DNA from: Gammaproteobacteria bacterium
GTDB taxonomy: Bacteria > Pseudomonadota > Gammaproteobacteria > CAJXQU01
DNA: 64,000 bases
Assembly: GCA_965238175.1 (NCBI GenBank)
Contig: CBDEGZ010000003.1
Span: 2,627,885-2,691,884 of the forward strand
Direction of reading: 5' to 3'
Positions 1 to 46,074 of the stretch are shown here, piece by piece. Positions within the stretch are counted from its first letter, which is position 1, and the number at the start of each line of letters is the position of its first letter. Both the position numbers and the translations under genes were made by a program. The notes beneath the pieces are model-generated. The model was not told the origin of the DNA, searched no databases, and saw only the letters and a program-made list of their open reading frames with translations.

Positions 1-615
1 CTTTGTTAAACCTTCAAGATAAATATAGAATCCACCCAACGTCATTGCCGCCAGTAGATATCGCAATCCACTACAGCCTTCAGCAACAAAAAATTTCCCA
101 GCGGGTATGTTCAAATAAACACCCTCTCGAAGAATAGCTGTACCAGTCAGTTTCACCAAAAAATGAGAAACAACTGCTGCAAAAGTTTGAAGATAGGGTA
201 AAAATAATTCCCACACAGGAAAAGCAACTAACAGAAAAACAATTGGAAACCATAGTCGTGTCAGAAATTCTCTGCCTGCAAGGGCAAAAACTAATGTAGG
301 TACAAGTAAGAAAAAGCTTATATTTTCTACAAAACGAATACCAAGATAAATACTGACCACCCAAAGTAATGATAATGGTATCAGCAGAATACTTGCTATC
401 AAATTCGGGCTCAAACAGATGTCTTTGATCTCTTCTCGCCATCCCCAAATCATATAGAAAGAGATAGTTAAAACCGCAAAACCGTGTGCATATGCACCGT
501 GCTCCCACTGCACCCAGTCATTTAACAGATATTGAATCGTTTCTATATAAGCAATCAAAAATATTGAACTAATAATAAGAAAAATTGCTAAGGTTTTAAA
601 ATTTGTCTGTGCCAT
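1..615 (-). CDS. Exosortase (XrtA/EpsH family), N-terminal 205 codons; the C-terminus runs off the window's 5' edge
   Basis: Reverse-complement translation from ATG at 615..613 gives MAQTNFKTLAIFLIIS...WEHGAYAHGFAVLTISFYMIWGWREE...FFVAEGCSGLRYLLAAMTL. It shows multiple TM helices, the exosortase N-terminal W..E.YsHG motif and the hallmark active-site CSG(L)R motif. The frame has no stop before position 1, so the six-frame track does not list it. Confidence 0.6.
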   Translation of the reverse strand, partial: MAQTNFKTLAIFLIISSIFLIAYIETIQYLLNDWVQWEHGAYAHGFAVLTISFYMIWGWREEIKDICLSPNLIASILLIPLSLLWVVSIYLGIRFVENISFFLLVPTLVFALAGREFLTRLWFPIVFLLVAFPVWELFLPYLQTFAAVVSHFLVKLTGTAILREGVYLNIPAGKFFVAEGCSGLRYLLAAMTLGGFYIYLEGLTK

Positions 616-843: not shown

Positions 844-1503
844 ATGGATATGAACTATAAAAAACTCAATATTTTATATTGGCAACCATACCAATTATTA
901 CTCGCAAACATCATTTTCTCTCTCATATTAACGTTACTCTCTTGTACAGTACGTGCTGGAATGGTTGATCTGACACTCTTTGGTGAAACAACTGACGCTT
1001 CAAATCAAAACAGTTTCGGTCTATCACCAGGGGAGCAAGTTAGTTTAAAAACCACTTTTGATTATTCAACCTTGACTGGAATAGGTGCTGAATCAATCAA
1101 ATTCACTAAAAGTTCTGGAAATAGCCTTAATTTAATTATGGGTGATTTGAACTTCTCTACAGATAATTTCGCAAGTTTTTCTCTTGGCTATCCTACAATT
1201 AACTTCTTAGATGGTATTTTTTCTGGTATAGATTACTTTGCTATTTCAGGTGCGAATGGTGCTCTGGAAAATCTTTTTTCTTATGAAAAAAAGTGGACAA
1301 GTATTGGTTCGATTACTACAGGAACTAATTCATTATTGTCGGGGCAGGGTTCAACTCAATGGGTAACAGGTACATGGGATGAGCCCTCATTAAGTGTCAA
1401 TGGTGTTCCATATGTTCCTGAGCCAGGTCCATTAACGCTTGCAGTAATTGGTGTTTTGGGTGCCTGGGCTTCATCTCACCGTCGCAAGACATTTAAAGAA
1501 TAG
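844..1503 (+). CDS. PEP-CTERM sorting-domain protein (exosortase substrate), otherwise no recognisable domain
   Basis: The C-terminus VPEPGPLTLAVIGVLGAWASSHRRKTFKE has the PEP motif, a TM helix and a basic cluster. The N-terminus is hydrophobic and signal-like. It is divergent from the exosortase gene. Confidence 0.6.
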   Translation: MDMNYKKLNILYWQPYQLLLANIIFSLILTLLSCTVRAGMVDLTLFGETTDASNQNSFGLSPGEQVSLKTTFDYSTLTGIGAESIKFTKSSGNSLNLIMGDLNFSTDNFASFSLGYPTINFLDGIFSGIDYFAISGANGALENLFSYEKKWTSIGSITTGTNSLLSGQGSTQWVTGTWDEPSLSVNGVPYVPEPGPLTLAVIGVLGAWASSHRRKTFKE

Positions 1504-1523: not shown

Positions 1524-2855
1524 CTACAACATTCTTGCATAGCGCTGACTGGTTTCGTCCAGTCGCTCTATGAGTATTTTTTGAATCGTCTTATTAATTC
1601 TCATTTGACAAGATAAAGATGCCCAATCGGACAAAGAATCTTCGAGTTTTAGCACCACTGTTTTACTGATAGCCGTAATAGTTGCAGATCGTTTTCCATC
1701 ATGCAACCAGGACATTTCACCAAAACAATCACCATCACTTAACGTTGTAATTTCTTTATCCATTTTAGTCACAGAAACATTTCCAGAAGTAATGACGTAA
1801 AACGTTTTATCTTGTTTACCTTCGCTCATGATATGAGTACCAGCCAGGCAAACCTCCCATTCACCTTCTTCCAATATTTCTTCTATATCTTGTTCGGAAA
1901 AACCATCAAAGAACTTCAGTTTAGAGAGCAGTTCGAGTTTTTGTTCCCGGGTAAGTTGTTCTTCAGAAGTTTCAATTTCAAACTCAACTTTTATCAAGTC
2001 CTCAGCTAACTCAGCACAATTTTCATACCGATCCTTTGGTTTTTTTTGTAATAATTTATCTATTATTTTTGATAATGATGGTGGTATTTCAGGACGATAT
2101 TTTTGTATTGGTTTTGGTTCGCTGGTAACAATATTCTTAAAAAGTGCAGGCATAGTACTGGCCTGAAAAGGGTGAACCCCAGCTAATAATTCATACATAA
2201 CAACACCGAGAGAAAAAATATCTGTTTGATGTGTTAACGACTTACCACTTGCTTGTTCAGGCGACATATAAAGAGGAGATCCAAGGCCTTTTTGAGTCGA
2301 GATTTTTTCATGTGCCTTTCTAACTGCAATACCAAAATCCGCAATCTTTAAATCACCCTCTTTTGTCAACAAAAGATTCGCTGGTTTAATGTCCCTATGA
2401 GTGATCCCTTTTCCATGCGCATAGTCCAATGCTTCTGCACATTGGCGAATGTAATGTAAAATCTGAGTCACAGGAAGTAAATCTTTTCGCTTGCGAAATG
2501 AGCGCAATGTATCTGCGTCTTCGACGAATTCTATCGCAATATAATCCTGGCCATCGGCATCCCCCGCCTCATAAACTTTAATAATATTCGGGTGATCAAG
2601 TATTCCAGCCGCTTTAGCTTCGTTAAAAAATTGCCGATGATTATCTTCTGCCATTGTTTCATCAAGTGAGAACTCACCTGCAGTAGCACTCAGACTTACC
2701 TTTATAGCCACTTTTCTATCAACGAATGGATCATGCCCTATATAGACAACGCCCATAGCTCCTTTGCCGGCTACTCCAACAATTTCATACTTACCTATTT
2801 TTTCAGGTAATTTTTCAGACATTATGCAGATTCCACGGAAACTGAATTCAAACAC
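1524..2855 (-). CDS. Eukaryotic-like Ser/Thr protein kinase fused to a C-terminal cyclic-nucleotide-binding (CAP_ED) domain
   Basis: Kinase motifs [20 protein letters not shown] and SPE. The C-terminus carries [10 protein letters not shown]...RSATITA, the cNMP-binding signature. The start overlaps the upstream gene by 34 bp, which indicates an operon. Confidence 0.7.
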
Positions 2856-5800
2856 TCGGCTTTTTCAGCTTCTGATTCAGTAATATAATCAATATTCATT
2901 TCGACTAGTAACTCCAAAGTATCCTCATCAATTTCATGAGATACGACAGTTTGTTTTTCCATCATATGCGCTATATCATTAAGTGATTTAATCAAACCAT
3001 AACTTTGTGCACTTTCAACAACGTCACTCGTCAAGATCTCATCTATACAAATGTAGTCAATCGGTAATTTCAATGCCTCCTGACTCAACCCATTAACACC
3101 AAATTGACCCAATGAAAAACGACAACCAAACTCTCTCAATGTACGGATAAAACGAACAACACTTAGCTTTTCATCTTCAGAAAAAATTCCAGGGACATCG
3201 AAACAGATCTTACCAGGCGGAACCGAACACTCCGTTAGTTTTTTGATTACATAATCAAGCGCTCCTCTAGAATTGATCGTTTTAGCAGAAAGACTTATCA
3301 AGCATCTTGTTTTTGATAAAGTCTTTTTCTTATTCTCAGACATCCATTCAAGACAATTATGAATATATCGCTTTTCGAAAGCACTAATAAGATCGTGATC
3401 AGAAGAAGCTTTTATAAACCGTTCCGGCTTTCTTAAAACACCCTCTTCATCTTCCATGGCTGGAAAAATATGTAACATCTTGATAGCTTGCTCTTCCTTA
3501 TTCGCAACAATTCGTTGGCCATATAGTGGAATGCGTTCTTCAGACTGACTATAACCTTCTAACCAAAATTGCCAATCAATAACTTCATGTTCAGAATCAA
3601 CTTTCTGTCCATCTTCAGAGGGGGAAACTTCTTCATGGATCCAAGCTTGGTTTTCTCCTAGCTCCTTAGCTTTCTCACAAGCATCAATCGCTAGCGAAAC
3701 TACTTGATCAATATCCGTCGCTAATTCATTAATAACTGATATTCCAATAGAAATTGGGAAATGAACTCTTACATCTTTCAAGATAAAATCACTATCTTCT
3801 AACGATTTAAGCAACGTTTCTGCAAGAATAAATGCCCCTTCTCTAGACATAAATTCGGATGTAATACCTAATGCATGTTCACCATGCCTACCAATAAGGC
3901 TTTTTTGTCCAAAGACTTCCAAAGCCAATTTAGCAACGTGCTTTAAGTAATTAATTATTTTTTCATTATCTTCACCATCTTCAGCTACTGATAATGATAA
4001 ATAGAAGAATTCATGTTCAACATGATCTTGACGAGCATTTTCCAACAATAAGCCGAGTTGCGTACGATATTTCTCTTCATTAAGCAGTCCTGTTTCTTCA
4101 TCAATGATGATCTGTTTATTCACATCATGATAAGCACCAAATAAACTCGAAAGTATTGCTCTGTCAAACAATGGTTTTTGATCTTTGTCAGATAATTCAG
4201 CAGTTCCCTTTAACAATCTTATAACGAGTTCCTGCTGGGTCATACTTACAGCTTTATTACCCTCATTATCGACAAAAATAAACTGATTATAAGCTGGTCC
4301 TATCCAGGCAAGTGATAGCAATTTTCTTTCACCTGCCACACCTTCAATAACAAGAGAATCACCTCTTCGCATTGACTTAGCATGACTTTGCCAAACTTTA
4401 TACTCACCGGTAGGTTCTGGAATTTTTGATCGATTCCGATTCTCATCAGGATTGTCTTTCTTAAAACCCTGTAGCAGCGTTTGATCTTGGTTACACTGAT
4501 CAATAACTTTCTGAACACGTAACTGGTAGAGGTTACTTTGTCGTTCTAATAATTCATTTAGACTATTAGTTATATTCTCCAAGCTATTTGCATCATAGCT
4601 TTCTAATGACAAAATCCTTTCCACAATGTCATCAATGGCTGGCCTGATCTCGATTTGTTGACTACCACCACGCATATCCAATTGCTCAAATAGGTTTATG
4701 ATATTTCGCAGTGGGTTGGATCTATCTTGAAACAAACCTCCTTCGGAAATGGCTTGCTTGTAAAGAACTGCTTGCATACGCTGAAAATCTTGCCTTGCGT
4801 AACTACTTAAATATTGTTCTTCTTTAAGAAAATCTAAAACACCTTCAGCAAGACCAAACACATTTTGTACATCTGCCCCAAATTGTTGGCCCCCATTCTG
4901 AAATAACGGGTTTAATCGGCCTTCGATATCTCCGATCATTTCACCTTTTTTCCATTTAAGGTTATCTTCCTGCTGGATCCGATTAAGAAGCGTAATGATC
5001 TGTTGCTGATTAGCAACGCTTATTGTTTCATTTGCACCAGCTTGTTCCTGGAACATTTCATGTGAGCTCGTTGGAATACCGACACTATGTTTCAGCGCCA
5101 TTAAAGTTTGTGTAATTTGTTCACTACTTTGTGGCGCAAAAGAAGGTACTGCACCCGCCATTACAGGTACTCCAATGTTGTTTCCATTGTGACCTGTGGG
5201 ATATCCCCTCCCTGGGTACATTTGTACTTGTTGAGGCACTTCTATTTTGTCACTCGTCCTTCTCAGTCGGGAACTTTCATGAACAGTTCCAGGCCGTTTA
5301 CTAGCTCTATTCTGAGGAGAGCTTTCTATACCTTCAGAAAGTTCTTCATACAAAATGATTAGATCTGGGAGTAGAACTTCTTCCAGTTGATGATAGGCCA
5401 ATCTTAGCGCCGTATACCCAAGATCTTTACTTTGAAGATACGAGTCAATCGTTGTAAATAAACGAGAAAAACCAATAGGATTTAGAATTTCATCATAGTT
5501 AGAATCATATAACTCAGACAACTTTCTGGTGACTCTATATAACAATAACCGATGATCAGCTTCAGCATCTGATACTATCCCAGTGAGTACTAGGTAGGTT
5601 TCGAATTCTTTTTCAGCAACTAGTGATAAAGTACCACTTCTTGATAGATCTTGATTTTCAAAAGCCTTTTCCCAATTGAGTGCAGGTCGTTTATGAAATT
5701 GACCTTGTATAGCCTTGGTAATATTTGTTACTGCACTATCCACATAGTCTTCGAATACACCATGAGCATTGAAATATTCATACTTTTCATTTTCGTCAGT

Positions 5801-6388
5801 AGTTTCCTTAATTGAAAGTAGTAATCTGTTTGTTAACTTTTTGAAATAATATTTCAGAATTCTTTCGAGACTTTGTTCAAGACCCAATTTACCTTCCGGT
5901 AATTTGTTGTATTCTCCAGACTTGGTTTTGTTAGTTTCCCGATCTTTATGTTCCGCACTTTGTTTTTTCTTTTCAGTAACTTCTCCAATTTTAACCAAAA
6001 TATCCAGTACTTTTTTATCTGGTTCTTCAAAAGAAACCCCCATCCCACTTTGGAAGATGCGCACAATTTTGAAGTTTACAGAATAGTTTTTTTCACCCGC
6101 ACCTTTATATTTAACAACGAATTCGACAGAAAAACGTCTACCTTGGATCGAATCTTTGATTGCTTGAATTTCAGATCTACCTTGTTCATCTCTCCATGAA
6201 AGGAAAAAACCATCAGGACAAAAATCTCGAATAATGCAGGGTTTTGCTTCTAACTCGCCACCACGTAAAGTGGCACGCATAGCCATAGGCACACGTCTGT
6301 AGCGCCTTCTTTCAGCTCCAGTAGCTTCTTTTATTGATTCTTTTGACATAAATTTGTTTGGTCTCTTTTCTAGAAACTTAACATTCAA
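2822..6388 (-). CDS. Large (1188 aa) c-di-GMP-related signalling protein: N-terminal PilZ domain, long unknown middle region, degenerate GGDEF and degenerate EAL domains
   Basis: PilZ motifs RRRYRRV (RxxxR) and DFCPDGFF (DxSxxG). A GGDEF-like fold has RHGEH in place of GG(D/E)EF. An EAL-like C-terminus has substituted catalytic motifs ([10 protein letters not shown] for DDFGTGYSS). It is probably a non-catalytic receptor or scaffold. Confidence 0.5.
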
Positions 6389-6470: not shown

Positions 6471-7718
6471 TTAGGCTGGTAATGCTTGGATTACCAGGCG
6501 ATGCTCTCTTGCTAACAAAGTAATACTGCCTATCCACAAAACACAAACAAGCATCGTTACCCAGCTGAGACTAACGATCGAAATGCCTGTGGGCAACCAT
6601 TGAGTCAATAATAAAATCAGAACTGATCCTGCCACTTTGAATAGACGATAGCCAAACATATCTATCCAAGCTTTTGCCTGATAAATCTGCAAGGGATCAA
6701 GCGGCACATATAACAATTCGCGAGAAGCTCGATTAATAGAATAGGCCAAACCACGATCACTTATTTTCATTATTTGTGCAGTCAACATCCCTGGGAATAT
6801 ATAAAAACTCCATGTGCTAAATAGCAAAAAAAACGGTTGTAGAGTTAAGCCGGCAATAGTTCCAAAATTTCTATGTACAAAAGGTGTAATAAATAAATTT
6901 ATACCGATAGCGATCAAACCCAGGTTAGCAAAAAAACCTGAAAGAAAACTTGTTCGTTGATTAAGATCTGTGAAATGAGTCTCAACCATACTCATGAATT
7001 TGTATTCCACTAATGGGGATGCAATTTGTGACAACATTAAAATAGTTGTAATCAATATCAGGTATCGATTTTTGATCAACGTCTCCCAACCTTCTATGAA
7101 AGTGGTTGTTTTAATTTTTTCTGTCTTTTCGTCATAGATGCCAATCCGGGAAAAGACCAGATTCAACACAACCAAGATCACTAAAATAGCTACCGCAAAT
7201 AAGAGAAGATATGAAGTCTCATAACCTTTCTCAATCCACATTTTGGCCATTTTGCCACCGAAAACACCTCCGAGCAGCCCACCTGTTCCAACAATGCCAT
7301 ACCATCTTTTTCCATCTGAAACACGGTAAATAGAATTAGCCAGGCTCCAAAATTGTTCAACCAAAACAACACTAAAAATATCTACAAATATATAAAAAAC
7401 AATAGCAGTTATTGTACTTTGTTGACTAAATAAAGCATAAAAAACAAGCAGTGCGACAATAAAAGTAGCTAACGTTCCAAGGACTAGGTTCAACCGACTA
7501 CATTTCTCCAAAAGACGATGGTAATAACTGATCAATAATCCTAAAATGACTGCAGTACCTATCCAAACGTAGGGTAAAGAATCAGCGCCCAGGTACTCAA
7601 TAAAGAGTGAACGACTCGCAGGTTTAATGTGGTAGTAGGCTAAGATGATAAGGAAAAAATTGATAAACAGTATCAAAGCTCGCCAAGTCAAACTCTGTGT
7701 AATTCCTGTACTTTTCAT
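6471..7718 (-). CDS. 12-TM MFS-like membrane transporter (weak resemblance to TLC/AAA nucleotide-translocase family)
   Basis: I count twelve hydrophobic segments. The N-terminal pattern F.LIILAYYHIKPASRSLF..LGA..LPY resembles the TLC family FNYTILRDTKD..IPF region. Substrate assignment is not reliable. Confidence 0.35.
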   Translation of the reverse strand: MKSTGITQSLTWRALILFINFFLIILAYYHIKPASRSLFIEYLGADSLPYVWIGTAVILGLLISYYHRLLEKCSRLNLVLGTLATFIVALLVFYALFSQQSTITAIVFYIFVDIFSVVLVEQFWSLANSIYRVSDGKRWYGIVGTGGLLGGVFGGKMAKMWIEKGYETSYLLLFAVAILVILVVLNLVFSRIGIYDEKTEKIKTTTFIEGWETLIKNRYLILITTILMLSQIASPLVEYKFMSMVETHFTDLNQRTSFLSGFFANLGLIAIGINLFITPFVHRNFGTIAGLTLQPFFLLFSTWSFYIFPGMLTAQIMKISDRGLAYSINRASRELLYVPLDPLQIYQAKAWIDMFGYRLFKVAGSVLILLLTQWLPTGISIVSLSWVTMLVCVLWIGSITLLAREHRLVIQALPA

Positions 7719-42870: not shown

Positions 42871-44346
42871 TTACTGTGAAATTAGCCTACATGTCGGCTC
42901 CCGTTGCATTACTTCCATCGATACCGAGACTTGTTCTTCAATAAACAACACAGACCTTCCACATTCCAAAATCGTCTTAACTTTCTCTATCGCCAGTCTC
43001 ACAGGAAACCCAAAACGTGCGCCACGATGATTCCGTTTCATTCTGGTAAGATCAAGCTTTTTAGCAACAACCTCATCGGAATGATGATAAAACTCATAAA
43101 ACTTCCCCACCCGAAAGAACAACACGTCCCCAGGAAAACGCCAGCGAAAATATCCATACTGTTGACTGACTCGCTGAAAGTTCTTTGGTACAGCATATTT
43201 TCTGATCAACTTCCAGCTAACACTATCAAACTCAAAATACTGCTGCAAATAATCAAATCTGTTCCAAATCGATTGCCACAGGTTCCAGCAACTGGCGAGT
43301 TTAAAATGTCCCAGATACGACGATAGCATTGCTGATAATTTATCCAGCAAAGTAATATCAAAGCGATAGCGCGTGACACCGCCCCTTTCTTCAACCAGCA
43401 AGGATTCATAGTCACACAATTGTTCCTTAAGGTGATTCACCACCCGCCGCCTCACCAGCATATAATCCCGTCGCACGATATAACCGAGAAAATCCAGCCC
43501 ATTCGAAACTGAGGCTAGCGGCTGTCGTGAGTTGAGTTGTAACTGGCGATGTTCATTCAGATTAACTTCTATCTGACTTTTCCATTCCAGTAGTTGCTCT
43601 CGCTCCTTTGCCAGCAGCACAAAATCATCACAATAACGTAAGTAATACCGGCACTTCAATTGATGCTTAATCAGATGATCCATACCGGTCAGATAGACAT
43701 TGGCAAAAAACTGGCTATTCAAATTACCGATGGGCAATCCTTTATTGTCACCACAACCAAACAGGGTTTTATGTGCGGGTATTCGTCCAGTTAAATCACG
43801 TCCCCGAAAAATATGGTTCTGTGTACAATCATGATAGACCAGTATTTTCGTCAACCATAATGCCGTGTCATCGTTAAGCTTTGCCGACAATAAGCCATAA
43901 AGAATATCCTTATCAATGGTCATGAAATAATTACGGATATCCAGTTGCAAATAATACGCTGGTTGTATGCCGTTGCAGGTCACTTGTCGAATAAACCGCT
44001 GTAGACGTTTCACACCACGATGCACTCCTTTGCCTTTTCGACAGGCATAGGAATCATGGATAAATATTGGTTCCCAGATTTTCTCCAGATAATCTACCAG
44101 TAAATGATGCACCACACGGTCACGAAAATCGGCAGCAAAGATTTCGCGTAACTTAGGTCGAGTTGAAAAAAAGCAGACAGAACGGGTCGGCTGGTAAGTA
44201 CGATTGATCAATGACTCTCGCAGGCTCAACAGTTGTTTCTCCTGCTCAGCTTCAAAACGCAATGCATTAATTGTGTTGCGCTTATTTCTGCGACAGGCGT
44301 AATACTGCCGATAGAGATTTTCAAGCGACAGGTCGAGAGTGATCAT
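42871..44346 (-). CDS. Diversity-generating retroelement reverse transcriptase with C-terminal MutS domain-I-like extension
   Basis: RT motifs: LDIRNYF (motif A), the DGR-diagnostic LPIGNLNSQ in place of QGxxxSP, and [11 protein letters not shown] (YxDD). Residues from about 395 to the end read [78 protein letters not shown]. This aligns with E. coli MutS [81 protein letters not shown]. Confidence 0.85.
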   Translation of the reverse strand: [491 protein letters not shown]

Positions 44347-44479
44347 TCTCCGGGGCGAACGGCAAGGGCAAACAAATTATTAGTCTTATTGTTGTTGTTC
44401 TGGTTGCCGTTATTGAAGTTAAAGTTCAGCGCATTAGAGGAATTCAACTCCACGCCTGACCAGTAGTTATTCGACTGGA
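44347..44479 (-). repeat. DGR template repeat (TR), about 130 bp, abutting the RT start codon
   Basis: Homologous to 45382..45515 at an offset of 1036. The coding-strand reading is an Asn(AAY)-rich pseudo-ORF (SNNYWSGVELNSSNALNFNFNNGNQNNNNKTNNLFALAVRPGE). 14 of 15 mismatches to the VR fall at TR adenines. Confidence 0.85.
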
Positions 44480-44699
44480 CAATTACCTGCCCTCTTTCCG
44501 ATAGTATCCTGAGGATAAACTCACAAAACGGATACCACCCCACCGGCAAGAAATCTTTGTAATAAAGTAGCCTTGCCTGAATTAACATGCCAGAGAAACT
44601 ATTCTCAGGCGGGACAGGCGCACAATGATACACGTTGGTACGCTTACCTGAACTGTCCATACAAACAGGACAAATTAACAGATAATTCTGACTCTCTCA

Positions 44700-45071
44700 T
44701 CAAACTACACCTTTTTCATTTTTTCGTACTCGACTGCTCCTTATCCAGCCCTCGTTCTGTCTGCAAACTGACACCACCTGTTCGATGGCAAATTGAAATG
44801 ATTTAAAACTTTTGAAGGCCTTTGCCTCTTTCGCTATACGCACGAGTATCAATAATTCATCGAGCTGTTCGCGCAAGACCAGAAGATGAGGGCGCTTATC
44901 CCTGGCGGCATTGGCTTTCATAATCAGGGAAACCACTACACGGCTTTTGTTGCGTAGTTCTGTGCCGAGCGTGTATTTGTGATAACGGGAGAAGCCCGAA
45001 ACCACTTTTTCGAAATAAACGGCCACATCCATCGCTTGTTTGTAAATCGGAAGATGTTCGTATCTTGCCAT
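44700..45071 (-). CDS. avd: DGR accessory variability determinant (Avd; four-helix-bundle protein, TIGR02436-like)
   Basis: 123 aa basic protein between the target gene and the TR. Helix pattern HKYTLGTELRNKSRVVVSLIMKA / LREQLDELLILVRIAKEAKAF / FQFAIEQVVSVCRQNEGW is typical of the Avd family. Confidence 0.65.
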   Translation of the reverse strand: MARYEHLPIYKQAMDVAVYFEKVVSGFSRYHKYTLGTELRNKSRVVVSLIMKANAARDKRPHLLVLREQLDELLILVRIAKEAKAFKSFKSFQFAIEQVVSVCRQNEGWIRSSRVRKNEKGVV

Positions 45072-45294
45072 GAGTAAAATTCCTTTTTCTGTAGCGCTTG
45101 TAGGTCGGATTACAACTGCATATATGCCGGAGGTAAGTAGCGCAGGAGCAGTTACCGAGCGCAGCGTAATCCGACAAATAATAAATGCTGGATTATGCTA
45201 TCGCTAATCCAACCTACAAATTCAAAACCGCAGGGGGCGTCCCCTACCCCCCTAAAGGGTCAAATCATACAAATGACCGAATGACCAAATTACG

Positions 45295-46074
45295 TTACCG
45301 CCGTTTCCTTCTAAACCCTGCCAACCCAAACAATGCGGAACCCATCAGCCATACAGCCGCTGGAACTGGGACGGCGGCAACATCGCCGGGGCGAACGGCA
45401 TGGGCAAACAAATTAAAAGTCTTATTGCGGTTGCGCTGGTCGCCGTTAGTGAAGCTAAAGAGCAGCGCATTAGAGGAACCCAACTCCACGCCTGACCAGT
45501 AGTTATGCGACTGGAGGTTGGTGAATTGGCCTACGTTGTTGAGTCCAGCGCCTGTTTGTGCGACACAGCCGGTTGGGGCGCTGTTGTTGGGTGTGCAAAA
45601 GCCCAGGTTGCCCAGCGTTGCGTAGTATAAATGACCCATTTCTGAGACTGGGGTGTTACTACTGTTCTGCCAGCCGATGCCAGTGGCGCCTGTACCAATG
45701 TCGCTGGTGCCGTTGTTGGTGAAGCCGGTCTGGAAGCTTGTACCATTGATGGGACTTAGGCTTGGCAGGCGCCAGTCGTTGAAGCCGAGGTGGTTGGCGC
45801 TGTTCATGCCCGCTATCCACAGGTTGGCGTTGTCCCAGGTCATGCGACCGGTGCTGCCAACAGTGTTGGCGGTGTCGTCAGCTTCATTGGTGCTGAGTGT
45901 CAGGCCAAACTGGTTGGTCAGTGCCAAGTTGGCATTGGAGAGCCAGGTGATGTCCAGTACATCATCATAGAGGGCATCGCCGCCCAATCTTGAGATTAAG
46001 GTGGCGTGGGCGGTGCTGCTTAAGCAAATGAGTAGTGTTATTACGCTGAAAGACTTAATACTGATGAGTTTCAT
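45295..46074 (-). CDS. DGR target protein: secreted DUF1566 (Lcl C-terminal / C-type-lectin-fold) protein with C-terminal PEP-CTERM exosortase sorting signal
   Basis: Signal peptide MKLISIKSFSVITLLICLSSTAHA. DUF1566 hallmarks (DITWLSNANLA..., NDWRLPS, ...AVRPGD). The VR lies at residues about 187-230. The C-terminus is VPVPAAVWLMGSALFGLAGFRRKRR, a PEP-like motif with TM helix and RRKRR. Confidence 0.8.
   Translation of the reverse strand: MKLISIKSFSVITLLICLSSTAHATLISRLGGDALYDDVLDITWLSNANLALTNQFGLTLSTNEADDTANTVGSTGRMTWDNANLWIAGMNSANHLGFNDWRLPSLSPINGTSFQTGFTNNGTSDIGTGATGIGWQNSSNTPVSEMGHLYYATLGNLGFCTPNNSAPTGCVAQTGAGLNNVGQFTNLQSHNYWSGVELGSSNALLFSFTNGDQRNRNKTFNLFAHAVRPGDVAAVPVPAAVWLMGSALFGLAGFRRKRR
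45382..45515 (-). repeat. DGR variable repeat (VR) inside the target gene, with a GC-rich IMH-like 3' end
   Basis: Aligns base-for-base with the TR. Substitutions N->H/G/L/S/T/D/R/R/F and others arise only where the TR coding strand has A. The 3' end GCCGTTCGCCCCGG is GC-rich and carries the single non-adenine difference (position 45401 versus TR 44365). Confidence 0.85.

Follow-up and report, generated by a model that had tools for sequence, protein, structure and literature searches.

A chromosomal diversity-generating retroelement whose lectin-like target carries a predicted exosortase-class sorting tail behind its variable region

A complete retroelement with a tailed target

A diversity-generating retroelement (DGR) in a gammaproteobacterial genome probably diversifies a Sec-exported, lectin-like protein that carries an exosortase-class sorting tail after its variable region (VR), and the protein would be delivered to the cell surface upon processing of that tail. 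The element lies in a stretch of 64,000 nucleotides of contig CBDEGZ010000003.1 (assembly GCA_965238175.1), which we call the window; positions given below are those of the window, and features lie on its (-) strand unless stated otherwise. Positions 42871..46074 are a genuine chromosomal DGR, with a complete cassette in the order target, avd, template region (TR) and reverse transcriptase (RT). The target gene (45295..46074) encodes 259 residues that comprise a probable signal peptide, an Lcl_C/DUF1566 lectin-like domain containing the VR, and the sorting tail. It is accompanied by the avd accessory gene (44700..45071, 123 residues), which scores 48.2 bits on the bAvd model PF22296 (cut-off 40) and 44.3 bits on NF033474 (DivGenRetAVD), by the TR (44347..44479), and by the gene for an RT of 491 residues (42871..44346) that matches RVT_1 at 58 bits and contains the motifs LPIGNLNSQ and YCDD. 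The C-terminal part of the RT is a MutS_I domain (PF01624; about 42898..43170, 40.6 bits), and four other cassettes hold full-length relatives of this RT at 60-65% identity. Because its neighbors are housekeeping genes (fhs, apt, ligA, smc, pnp, infB, nadB, rseB and degP), we regard the DGR as chromosomal and not obviously phage-borne. By a search with its PNPase, the window belongs to uncultured Gammaproteobacteria.

The VR (45383..45515, codons 187-231) and the TR, which has 40 adenines and 15 AAY codons in its 133 bp, match over their whole length without a gap. They differ at 16 of 133 positions, of which 15 are adenines in the TR and one is a thymine, and nine of the 15 AAY (Asn) codons are altered in the VR, to His, Gly, Leu, Ser, Thr, Asp, Arg, Arg and Phe. 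As comparison of the two regions shows, up to 15 Asn codons of the target would be rewritable from the TR by adenine-specific mutagenic retrohoming. Since the mismatches are so nearly confined to adenines, there has likely been little ordinary drift since the last homing event. Moreover, the target, avd, the TR-bearing open reading frame (ORF) and the RT are all intact, and the RT retains its catalytic motifs; together with the near-purity of the adenine mismatches, this suggests that the element worked recently in evolutionary terms. The only difference at a non-adenine position lies in codon 225 (45399..45401), where the TR has CTT (Leu) and the VR has CAT (His).

The TR is itself contained in an ORF of 105 residues (44343..44660) whose end, ...NLFALAVRPGE followed by the stop codon, mimics the C-terminus of the target (16.5 bits on Lcl_C). 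The stop codon of this ORF overlaps the RT start codon, so that the TR abuts that start codon with zero spacer. As for the fusion of MutS_I to the RT, it is also kept in the related cassettes L059, L067 and L079; weak MutS_I similarity was reported in only three RTs by Wu et al. 2018 (PMC5758913).

The first 24 residues of the target (MKLISIKSFSVITLLICLSSTAHA; 46003..46074) are a probable Sec signal peptide, read from the sequence, with A-H-A before the mature end and no lipobox. Within this segment an AlphaFold2 model of the target, built on 35 homologues, has a helix at residues 6-17 with low predicted local distance difference test scores (pLDDT), and the hydrophobic N-terminal segment is conserved in the family alignment. 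Residues 25-230 are folded confidently in the model, which as a whole has a pLDDT of 86.8 and a predicted template modeling score of 0.80. The VR makes up the last 44 residues of this fold, and it ends the fold, not the protein. By profile search the sole solved relative is the C-terminal domain of Legionella Lcl (8q4e, E 2.5e-4). The same structure is the top match in a Foldseek search; next come C-type lectins of animals and DUF1566 proteins of phages, and all of these matches are local and modest (39-66 columns in the best rows). The precomputed Pfam annotation of an identical protein in the databases includes PF07603.18. It is likely, but not proven, that the whole domain is C-type-lectin-like and of the DUF1566 class. 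Proteins with DUF1566 are an established class of DGR targets (category 'd'), exemplified by the Legionella lipoprotein LdtA (Wu et al. 2018; PMC5758913).

Directly after the last VR codon comes the sorting tail (residues 232-259, 45298..45381), with which the protein ends as ...FAHAVRPGDVAAVPVPAAVWLMGSALFGLAGFRRKRR. It consists of VAA, the motif VPVP (45361..45372), a hydrophobic stretch of 16 residues (45313..45360) that belongs to a helix at residues 239-258 in the AlphaFold2 model, and the basic cluster RRKRR (45298..45312). Residues 235-259 score 29.1 bits (E 7e-7) on the NCBIfam hidden Markov model (HMM) TIGR03370 for VPLPA-CTERM, above its cut-off of 25.35, and 19.1 bits on TIGR02595 for PEP_CTERM, above its cut-off of 16. 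Among 35 family members, TIGR03370 matches 25 and TIGR02595 matches 18 at E ≤ 0.01. The VPxP/PEP motif is nearly invariant in the family alignment, and P236 and P238 are invariant. A third model, NF033554 for PepA, gives 14.7 bits for the window target and does not reach its equivalog cut-off of 80; it matches 26 of the 35 family members, with listed scores of 14.7-33.4 bits, all far under that cut-off, and a best E of 1.3e-10. A chance likeness to sorting signals was considered and rejected on the family conservation and the HMM E-value. As shown by the HMMs and by family conservation, the tail is a predicted tripartite sorting signal of the PEP-CTERM class, for which VPLPA-CTERM is the best subtype label.

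A preliminary description of this DNA had placed the DGR VR directly upstream of such a tail, and this was borne out: 45295..45515 comprises exactly the VR, the tail and the stop codon. Its assignment of the VR to the C-terminal portion of a lectin-like DUF1566/Lcl_C domain is likewise supported. It had put the motif within about 28 residues of the VR; the tail does follow the VR, but VPVP starts just four residues after the last VR codon, and 28 is the length of the whole tail. TIGR02595 had been named beforehand as the test of the tail, which it passed, so the PEP-CTERM label stands as far as that model goes; the best-scoring class, however, is VPLPA-CTERM, and Pfam PF07589 was missed.

If the tail were a mere C-terminal membrane anchor, the protein would stay in the inner membrane facing the periplasm, uncleaved. 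This alternative can point to the fact that processing rests on inference, that PF07589 is not reached, and that the motif has no canonical Glu of PEP. We nevertheless find it very unlikely. The motif abuts the helix without a spacer and is followed by the basic cluster, which is how such signals are described in the Haft preprint (10.1101/2023.06.07.544157); two curated NCBIfam cut-offs are passed; VPxP/PEP is conserved to a degree that a plain anchor would not require; and an exosortase gene is present in the window.

Recurrence of the tail among related retroelements and in a wider family

The combination of a DGR with a tailed target recurs outside the window. A metagenome scan with four aligned RTs gave 343 relatives, of which 80 were kept, and for roughly half of these 80 a script identified TR/VR pairs. 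Five metagenome targets, all in full cassettes with A-biased TR/VR pairs, are tailed, four with PEP-type tails (L085, L090, L091 and L100) and one with a VPLP tail (L097). Their RTs share 53-66% identity with the window RT, and 29-37 residues follow the VR. Where RT identity is at most 51%, no target has a sorting tail, and the VR mostly ends 0-6 residues before the stop codon, as in ...VWPVRSGQ followed by the stop. Counting the window, there are 10 independent DGR loci with PEP-CTERM-class tails, which fall into three subtypes (canonical, VPLPA and PEPxxWA), and TIGR02595 is passed by six of the 10 DGR-linked tails (the window, L079 and four of the five metagenome targets). We regard the pairing as a property of a DGR sub-clade and not as an accident of the window genome. 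The preliminary description had called the pairing unusual for DGR targets, and in this it was right, with the qualification that nine other DGR loci share it. On the explanation that we find best, the sub-clade of MutS_I-bearing RTs closest to the window RT has specialized on tailed lectin-like targets.

The target also belongs to a much larger family. A search returned 1523 homologues at E ≤ 1e-3, and most of the top 120 share one plan: the fold ends in ...AWAVR(P/S)GD(V/I), within a few residues comes VPxPAAVW... or VPEP..., and a hydrophobic stretch and a basic cluster follow. In a genome scan that used one genome per species, 414 related loci were found and 80 kept, and about 75 of the 80 have the sorting tail. 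The hosts include Thiohalobacter, Chromatiaceae, Methylomonas, many Burkholderiales and Rhodocyclaceae, Thiobacillus, and also Pirellulales and Nitrospirales. A full cassette with an A-biased TR/VR pair is present in only four of the 80 genome loci (L028, L059, L067 and L079), and none of the 25 loci that have full 10-kb flanks has an RT. Since most loci have no DGR nearby, the tailed lectin-like protein is best seen as a widespread ordinary family in which DGR linkage is the exception. Close members of this family switch freely between VPEP and VPVPAAVW tails.

Several loci of the family appear to have once been part of a DGR. Truncated avd remnants lie directly after tailed members, with no TR or RT, at L003, L010, L013, L014, L016, L032, L057, L068, L075 and L076, and these look like decayed DGR cassettes. 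The DGR-linked target of L059 (514..1257) has an internal stop between SEMA and LFF, which makes it either a pseudogene or the product of a sequencing error in a metagenome-assembled genome. In a sister lineage of the window organism (ENA sample ERZ25073254; L001, L083, L165, L166 and L167), the VAAVPVPAAVWLMGSALFGLAGFRRK tail is shared by eight or more paralogues that are scattered or in tandem and have no adjacent RT. When these paralogues were compared with the window TR as possible remote targets of an orthologous TR, only 50-60% of the mismatches fell at adenines. The L166 paralogue retains a perfect copy of the downstream element described below, and this paralogue may be a remote DGR target.

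DNA elements around the tail-coding segment

The terminal position of VRs in their genes is explained by Roux et al. 2021 (PMC8144416) by a need for non-coding cis elements downstream. Guo et al. 2011 (PMC3240598) showed for phage BPP-1 that homing depends on the stem of a hairpin downstream of the VR, and in their set of phage DGRs this hairpin is placed 4-34 bp beyond the VR. Tailed targets, with a coding sorting signal behind the VR, run counter to the rule of the terminal VR. The tail-coding DNA was searched for a canonical hairpin no more than 34 bp from the VR; it has stems of only 3-6 bp, and the idea was rejected.

In the RT clade of the window, an element was found after the target stop codon. 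It combines two to six NNATT(T/C)G units in tandem, five or six consecutive G, and a GC-rich hairpin whose stem measures 7-11 bp and whose loop measures 3-4 nt, and it is conserved after tailed and untailed targets alike. The hairpin is of the same type as the one needed for homing in BPP-1. The hairpins of the relatives have the consensus GCAGGGGG-loop-CCCCCTGC, and the outer stem pairs vary by locus yet stay paired (GCA/TGC, CCG/CGG, GTG/CAC and TTG/CAA). Three of these hairpins fold at -10.7 to -13.4 kcal/mol with z scores of -2.9 to -4.3. RNAalifold recovered only three pairs from a MAFFT alignment of the element; hairpins were therefore scored locus by locus, as their loop lengths differ and the joint fold yields so few pairs. 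In the window, the tandem units (TAATTTG GTCATTCG GTCATTTG TATGATTTG ACCCTTT; 45254..45292) stand directly after the stop codon. They are followed at 45230..45253 by the G-run and a degraded GC hairpin and then by GGTTTT, a segment that is homologous to the 7-11 bp hairpin of related DGR loci and is flagged by a terminator scan. Of this hairpin, the 3' arm CCCCCTGC is intact and the 5' arm is reduced to TAGGGG, which makes it the weakest of the set. Copies of the element were seen in the window and at L028, L059, L067, L079, L085, L090, L091, L097, L104, L107, L118, L136, L143, L160 and L166.

The tail puts about 85-110 extra bases between the VR and this element. Measured in nine tailed loci, the distance from the VR to the hairpin is accordingly 119-155 nt, as opposed to 35-116 nt for untailed targets; the exception is L100, whose element is atypical and whose hairpin lies 194 nt after the VR. 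A strict pattern for the element is matched by six of 10 DGR-linked targets and by three of 64 other family members.

A second feature brackets the tail itself. In the window, the first tail codons (GTTGCCGCCGT; 45371..45381) can pair in a fold with the last Arg codons plus the stop codon (ACGGCGGTAAC; 45294..45304), the two arms of this inverted repeat having a perfect core of 7 bp and being complementary at 10 of 11 positions. When the two ends of the tail-coding DNA are compared, their longest complementary stretch has a mean length of 7.8 nt in the 10 DGR-linked loci and 5.6 nt in 69 other family members (Mann-Whitney p = 0.0016). A null was also built by recoding the same amino acids with the codon usage of the gene in question; against it, DGR-linked loci (n = 10) give a combined Fisher p of 3.8e-6, loci with avd remnants (n = 9) one of 0.0035, and the remaining 60, whose individual p-values look uniform, one of 0.81. 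The arms differ between loci and yet are complementary within each, as in ATGTCTCCGCCC at L079, CGCCGCCGTGC at L090 and GTCAGCGC at L028. We read this complementarity as a probable constraint on the nucleic acid that is tied to the DGR. Our hypothesis is that the repeat would loop out the 85-110 nt or so of tail-coding DNA and thereby join the 3' end of the VR to the NNATTTG repeat and hairpin element, whose usual place is near the VR. If this is true, looping out would offer a concrete way around the requirement for a VR at the end of the gene.

It may be, of course, that neither the inverted repeat nor the downstream hairpin is a DGR element, the former being a by-product of Ala (GCC) and Arg (CGG) codons and the latter an ordinary terminator. 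The arms do coincide with Ala-Ala and Arg-Arg codons, whose complementarity is natural, the window hairpin is followed by a T-run and so also resembles an intrinsic terminator, and the repeat in the window reaches only p = 0.059 by itself. We judge this account unlikely, however, given that a null preserving both amino acids and codon usage is beaten in DGR-linked and avd-remnant loci and not in the 60 others, and that arm sequences change from locus to locus with complementarity kept. The element is moreover concentrated among DGR targets and found after untailed targets of related RTs as well, and several of its hairpin copies have no T-run. A broader proposal, which we put forward tentatively, is that the sub-clade of MutS_I-fused RTs has specialized on exosortase substrates and that its target-recognition DNA has at the same time adapted to the coding tail by means of the looping repeat.

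Proposed processing and the case against it

By analogy with known PEP-CTERM systems, the target would be exported via Sec, and its C-terminal helix would then retain it in the inner membrane. An exosortase would cut at or near VPVP, this enzyme being either the XrtA-like one whose gene starts at 615 or an XrtD encoded outside the window. The protein would next be delivered to the cell surface or the extracellular matrix, where its variable face could bind ligands. Should cleavage occur at the motif, the processed protein would end no more than about six residues beyond the final strand of the fold, near the variable residues, which raises the question of how the protein would be oriented once attached.

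The exosortase gene of the window (1..615) is cut by the window edge and encodes the N-terminal 205 residues of the enzyme, including the motif EGCSGLRYL. This fragment scores 119.7 bits on the generic model TIGR02602 (cut-off 105.55). Its best specific model is XrtA, with 149.8 bits over 190 of 261 positions, which puts it on course for the full-length cut-off of 208. The relatives of the fragment are distant, at no more than 36% identity, and their names are uninformative. The preliminary description had noted an exosortase with CSGLR here, and the generic model confirms the gene; its pairing with the tail is another matter. NCBIfam names TIGR04152 the 'VPLPA-CTERM-specific exosortase XrtD', and because the tail is of the VPLPA-CTERM type and the exosortase in view resembles XrtA, an enzyme-substrate pair is not established. 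The same description had also listed a second PEP-CTERM protein at 844..1503 on the (+) strand. This protein of 219 residues has, by eye, a VPEP/helix/RRK tail and could be an ordinary PEP-CTERM substrate, but it is below threshold on every model tried (17.7 bits on PF07589, cut-off 20.7) and has zero matches in the NCBIfam scan.

A number of observations weigh against the interpretation as a whole. We infer cleavage and surface display by analogy. The sole exosortase in view is XrtA-like and not XrtD; its gene is 44 kb from the target and truncated; and no exosortase lies within 10 kb at any of the 80 family loci, so that there is no genomic linkage to lend support. On the protein side, the target scores 33.6 bits on Lcl_C (PF07603), just short of the gathering score of 34.9, and its tail scores 18.2 bits on PF07589, under the gathering score of 20.7. 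On the DNA side, the p = 0.059 of the window inverted repeat adds little, and the result for the repeats overall is exploratory, resting on a small sample of related loci. The window hairpin folds at only -6.3 kcal/mol (z -0.92), and 35 of 200 shuffled sequences fold equally well. The databases hold the target sequence, and with it the VR, in a single genome copy. Finally, because the hairpin is degraded and the BPP-1 stem is required for homing (PMC3240598), it is uncertain whether the VR in the window is turning over at present.

The first group of these points feeds a specific alternative, namely that the XrtA-like exosortase of the window is not the enzyme, and that the tail is handled by an XrtD encoded elsewhere in the 3.3-Mb genome, or else by nothing. 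In line with it, the tail scores higher on VPLPA-CTERM than on PEP_CTERM (29.1 versus 19.1 bits), the exosortase fragment reaches 65.9 bits on XrtD as opposed to 149.8 on XrtA, and its full-length relatives have 237-299 residues and not the approximately 490 of the XrtD model. We take this seriously without favoring it: the tail also passes the general PEP_CTERM cut-off, and the switching between VPEP and VPVPAAVW among close family members suggests that the two signals are functionally close.

The state of the hairpin, in turn, leads to the suggestion that the DGR is a fossil or nearly so, with a VR that was diversified once and is now frozen in a gene that behaves like its DGR-less relatives. 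Apart from the degraded hairpin, this would fit the single TR/VR mismatch at a non-adenine, the frequency of decay in the family (about 10 loci with an avd fragment and no RT, and the internal stop in the L059 target) and the sister lineage with its scattered paralogues that have no adjacent RT. Set against it are the intact ORFs of RT, avd, TR and target with the catalytic motifs in place, the 15 of 16 mismatches at adenines, which leave room for little drift since the last homing, and the G-run, repeat units and hairpin 3' arm still present in the window; on balance a fossil seems unlikely to us. The word 'hypervariable', which the preliminary description had applied to the target, is accordingly apt for the signature of past diversification, but it describes the past, given the state of the window hairpin. 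The reading that we prefer is still that of a DGR whose tailed, lectin-like target is probably sent to the cell surface.

Relation to known systems and implications

Both halves of the system, the DGR and the PEP-CTERM signal, are well known. What is possibly new is a class of DGR targets whose sorting signal is C-terminal, and perhaps also an adaptation of the DNA by which targets are recognized. In DGR surveys, targets are anchored or exported by N-terminal features and the VR stands at the end of the gene; the window and the nine other loci break this pattern and, if our reading is true, would form the first class of DGR targets to be sorted by a C-terminal signal. The literature searched yielded no paper joining a DGR with PEP-CTERM or linking DGRs to exosortases. 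A search for 'diversity-generating' together with exosortase returned only an unrelated Sphingomonas study, one for XrtD returned unrelated papers, and one for VPLPA-CTERM an incidental mention. The parts of the Roux et al. 2021 supplements that we could consult list PF07603 targets, with no entries for PF07589, PEP-CTERM or exosortase, and such C-terminal tails are unrecorded in the large DGR surveys.

A close parallel is the Legionella pneumophila DGR with its target LdtA (PMC5758913). Both are bacterial DGRs located on a chromosome or an integrative and conjugative element, with an avd gene and a small exported DUF1566-type target with a C-terminal VR that is, or in the window would be, displayed outside the cell. 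LdtA, however, has an N-terminal lipid anchor and its VR ends the protein, whereas the window target lacks a lipobox and continues past its VR into a sorting signal of 28 residues. The MutS-related accessory function also differs in form: in Legionella it is encoded separately, as an MSL gene, and in the window the RT itself carries it as a MutS_I domain. With the DGR of Bordetella phage BPP-1 and its target Mtd (PMC3240598), the window shares adenine-specific transfer from TR to VR and the order avd-TR-RT. BPP-1 and the relatives of the window locus are alike in having, downstream of the VR, a GC-rich hairpin whose loop is 3-4 nt long. In the phage DGRs, though, this hairpin follows the VR closely in non-coding DNA, whereas in the tailed loci it lies beyond the coding tail and the NNATTTG units, and in the window its stem is degraded. 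Legionella Lcl has a surface-binding domain, as the target is predicted to have, the match covering only about 40-50 residues of the VR-bearing end; Lcl differs in having collagen repeats, no VR and no sorting tail.

To our knowledge, the roles of PEP-CTERM proteins are largely obscure apart from flocs. The formation of flocs requires PEP-CTERM proteins, PepA being an example (PMC9850573; 10.1101/2023.06.07.544157). The PEP-CTERM/exosortase system to which PepA belongs (PMC9850573) has in common with the window an N-terminal signal peptide, which is probable in the window target, a C-terminal motif, helix and basic cluster, and an exosortase gene in the genome; the window motif is VPVPAAVW and not VPEP, and its matches to the PepA model are weak. 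As for the VPLPA-CTERM/XrtD pair (TIGR03370/TIGR04152), the window tail passes TIGR03370 and the exosortase in view is not XrtD-like. A hypermutated lectin-like face argues that the ligands of at least the tailed family are external and variable, for instance glycans, phages or other cells. One attractive possibility is that substrates tagged by their VR could serve to follow exosortase processing, and the repeat that brackets the tail provides a testable idea about how DGRs recognize their targets.

Other features of the window

The cassette is not uniform in base composition: the target gene (45400..46000) has a G+C content of 54-56%, the rest of the cassette 42-46%, and the window a mean of 41%. 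Beside the exosortase and PEP-CTERM-like genes, at 1524..6388, lie genes for a Ser/Thr kinase fused to a cyclic-nucleotide-binding domain and for a GGDEF/EAL-type protein of 1188 residues, and these may form a regulatory context for matrix production. Further along, at 6471..7718, is a transporter of 415 residues with matches to both the TLC ATP/ADP transporter family (PF03219, E 3e-20) and MFS_1.

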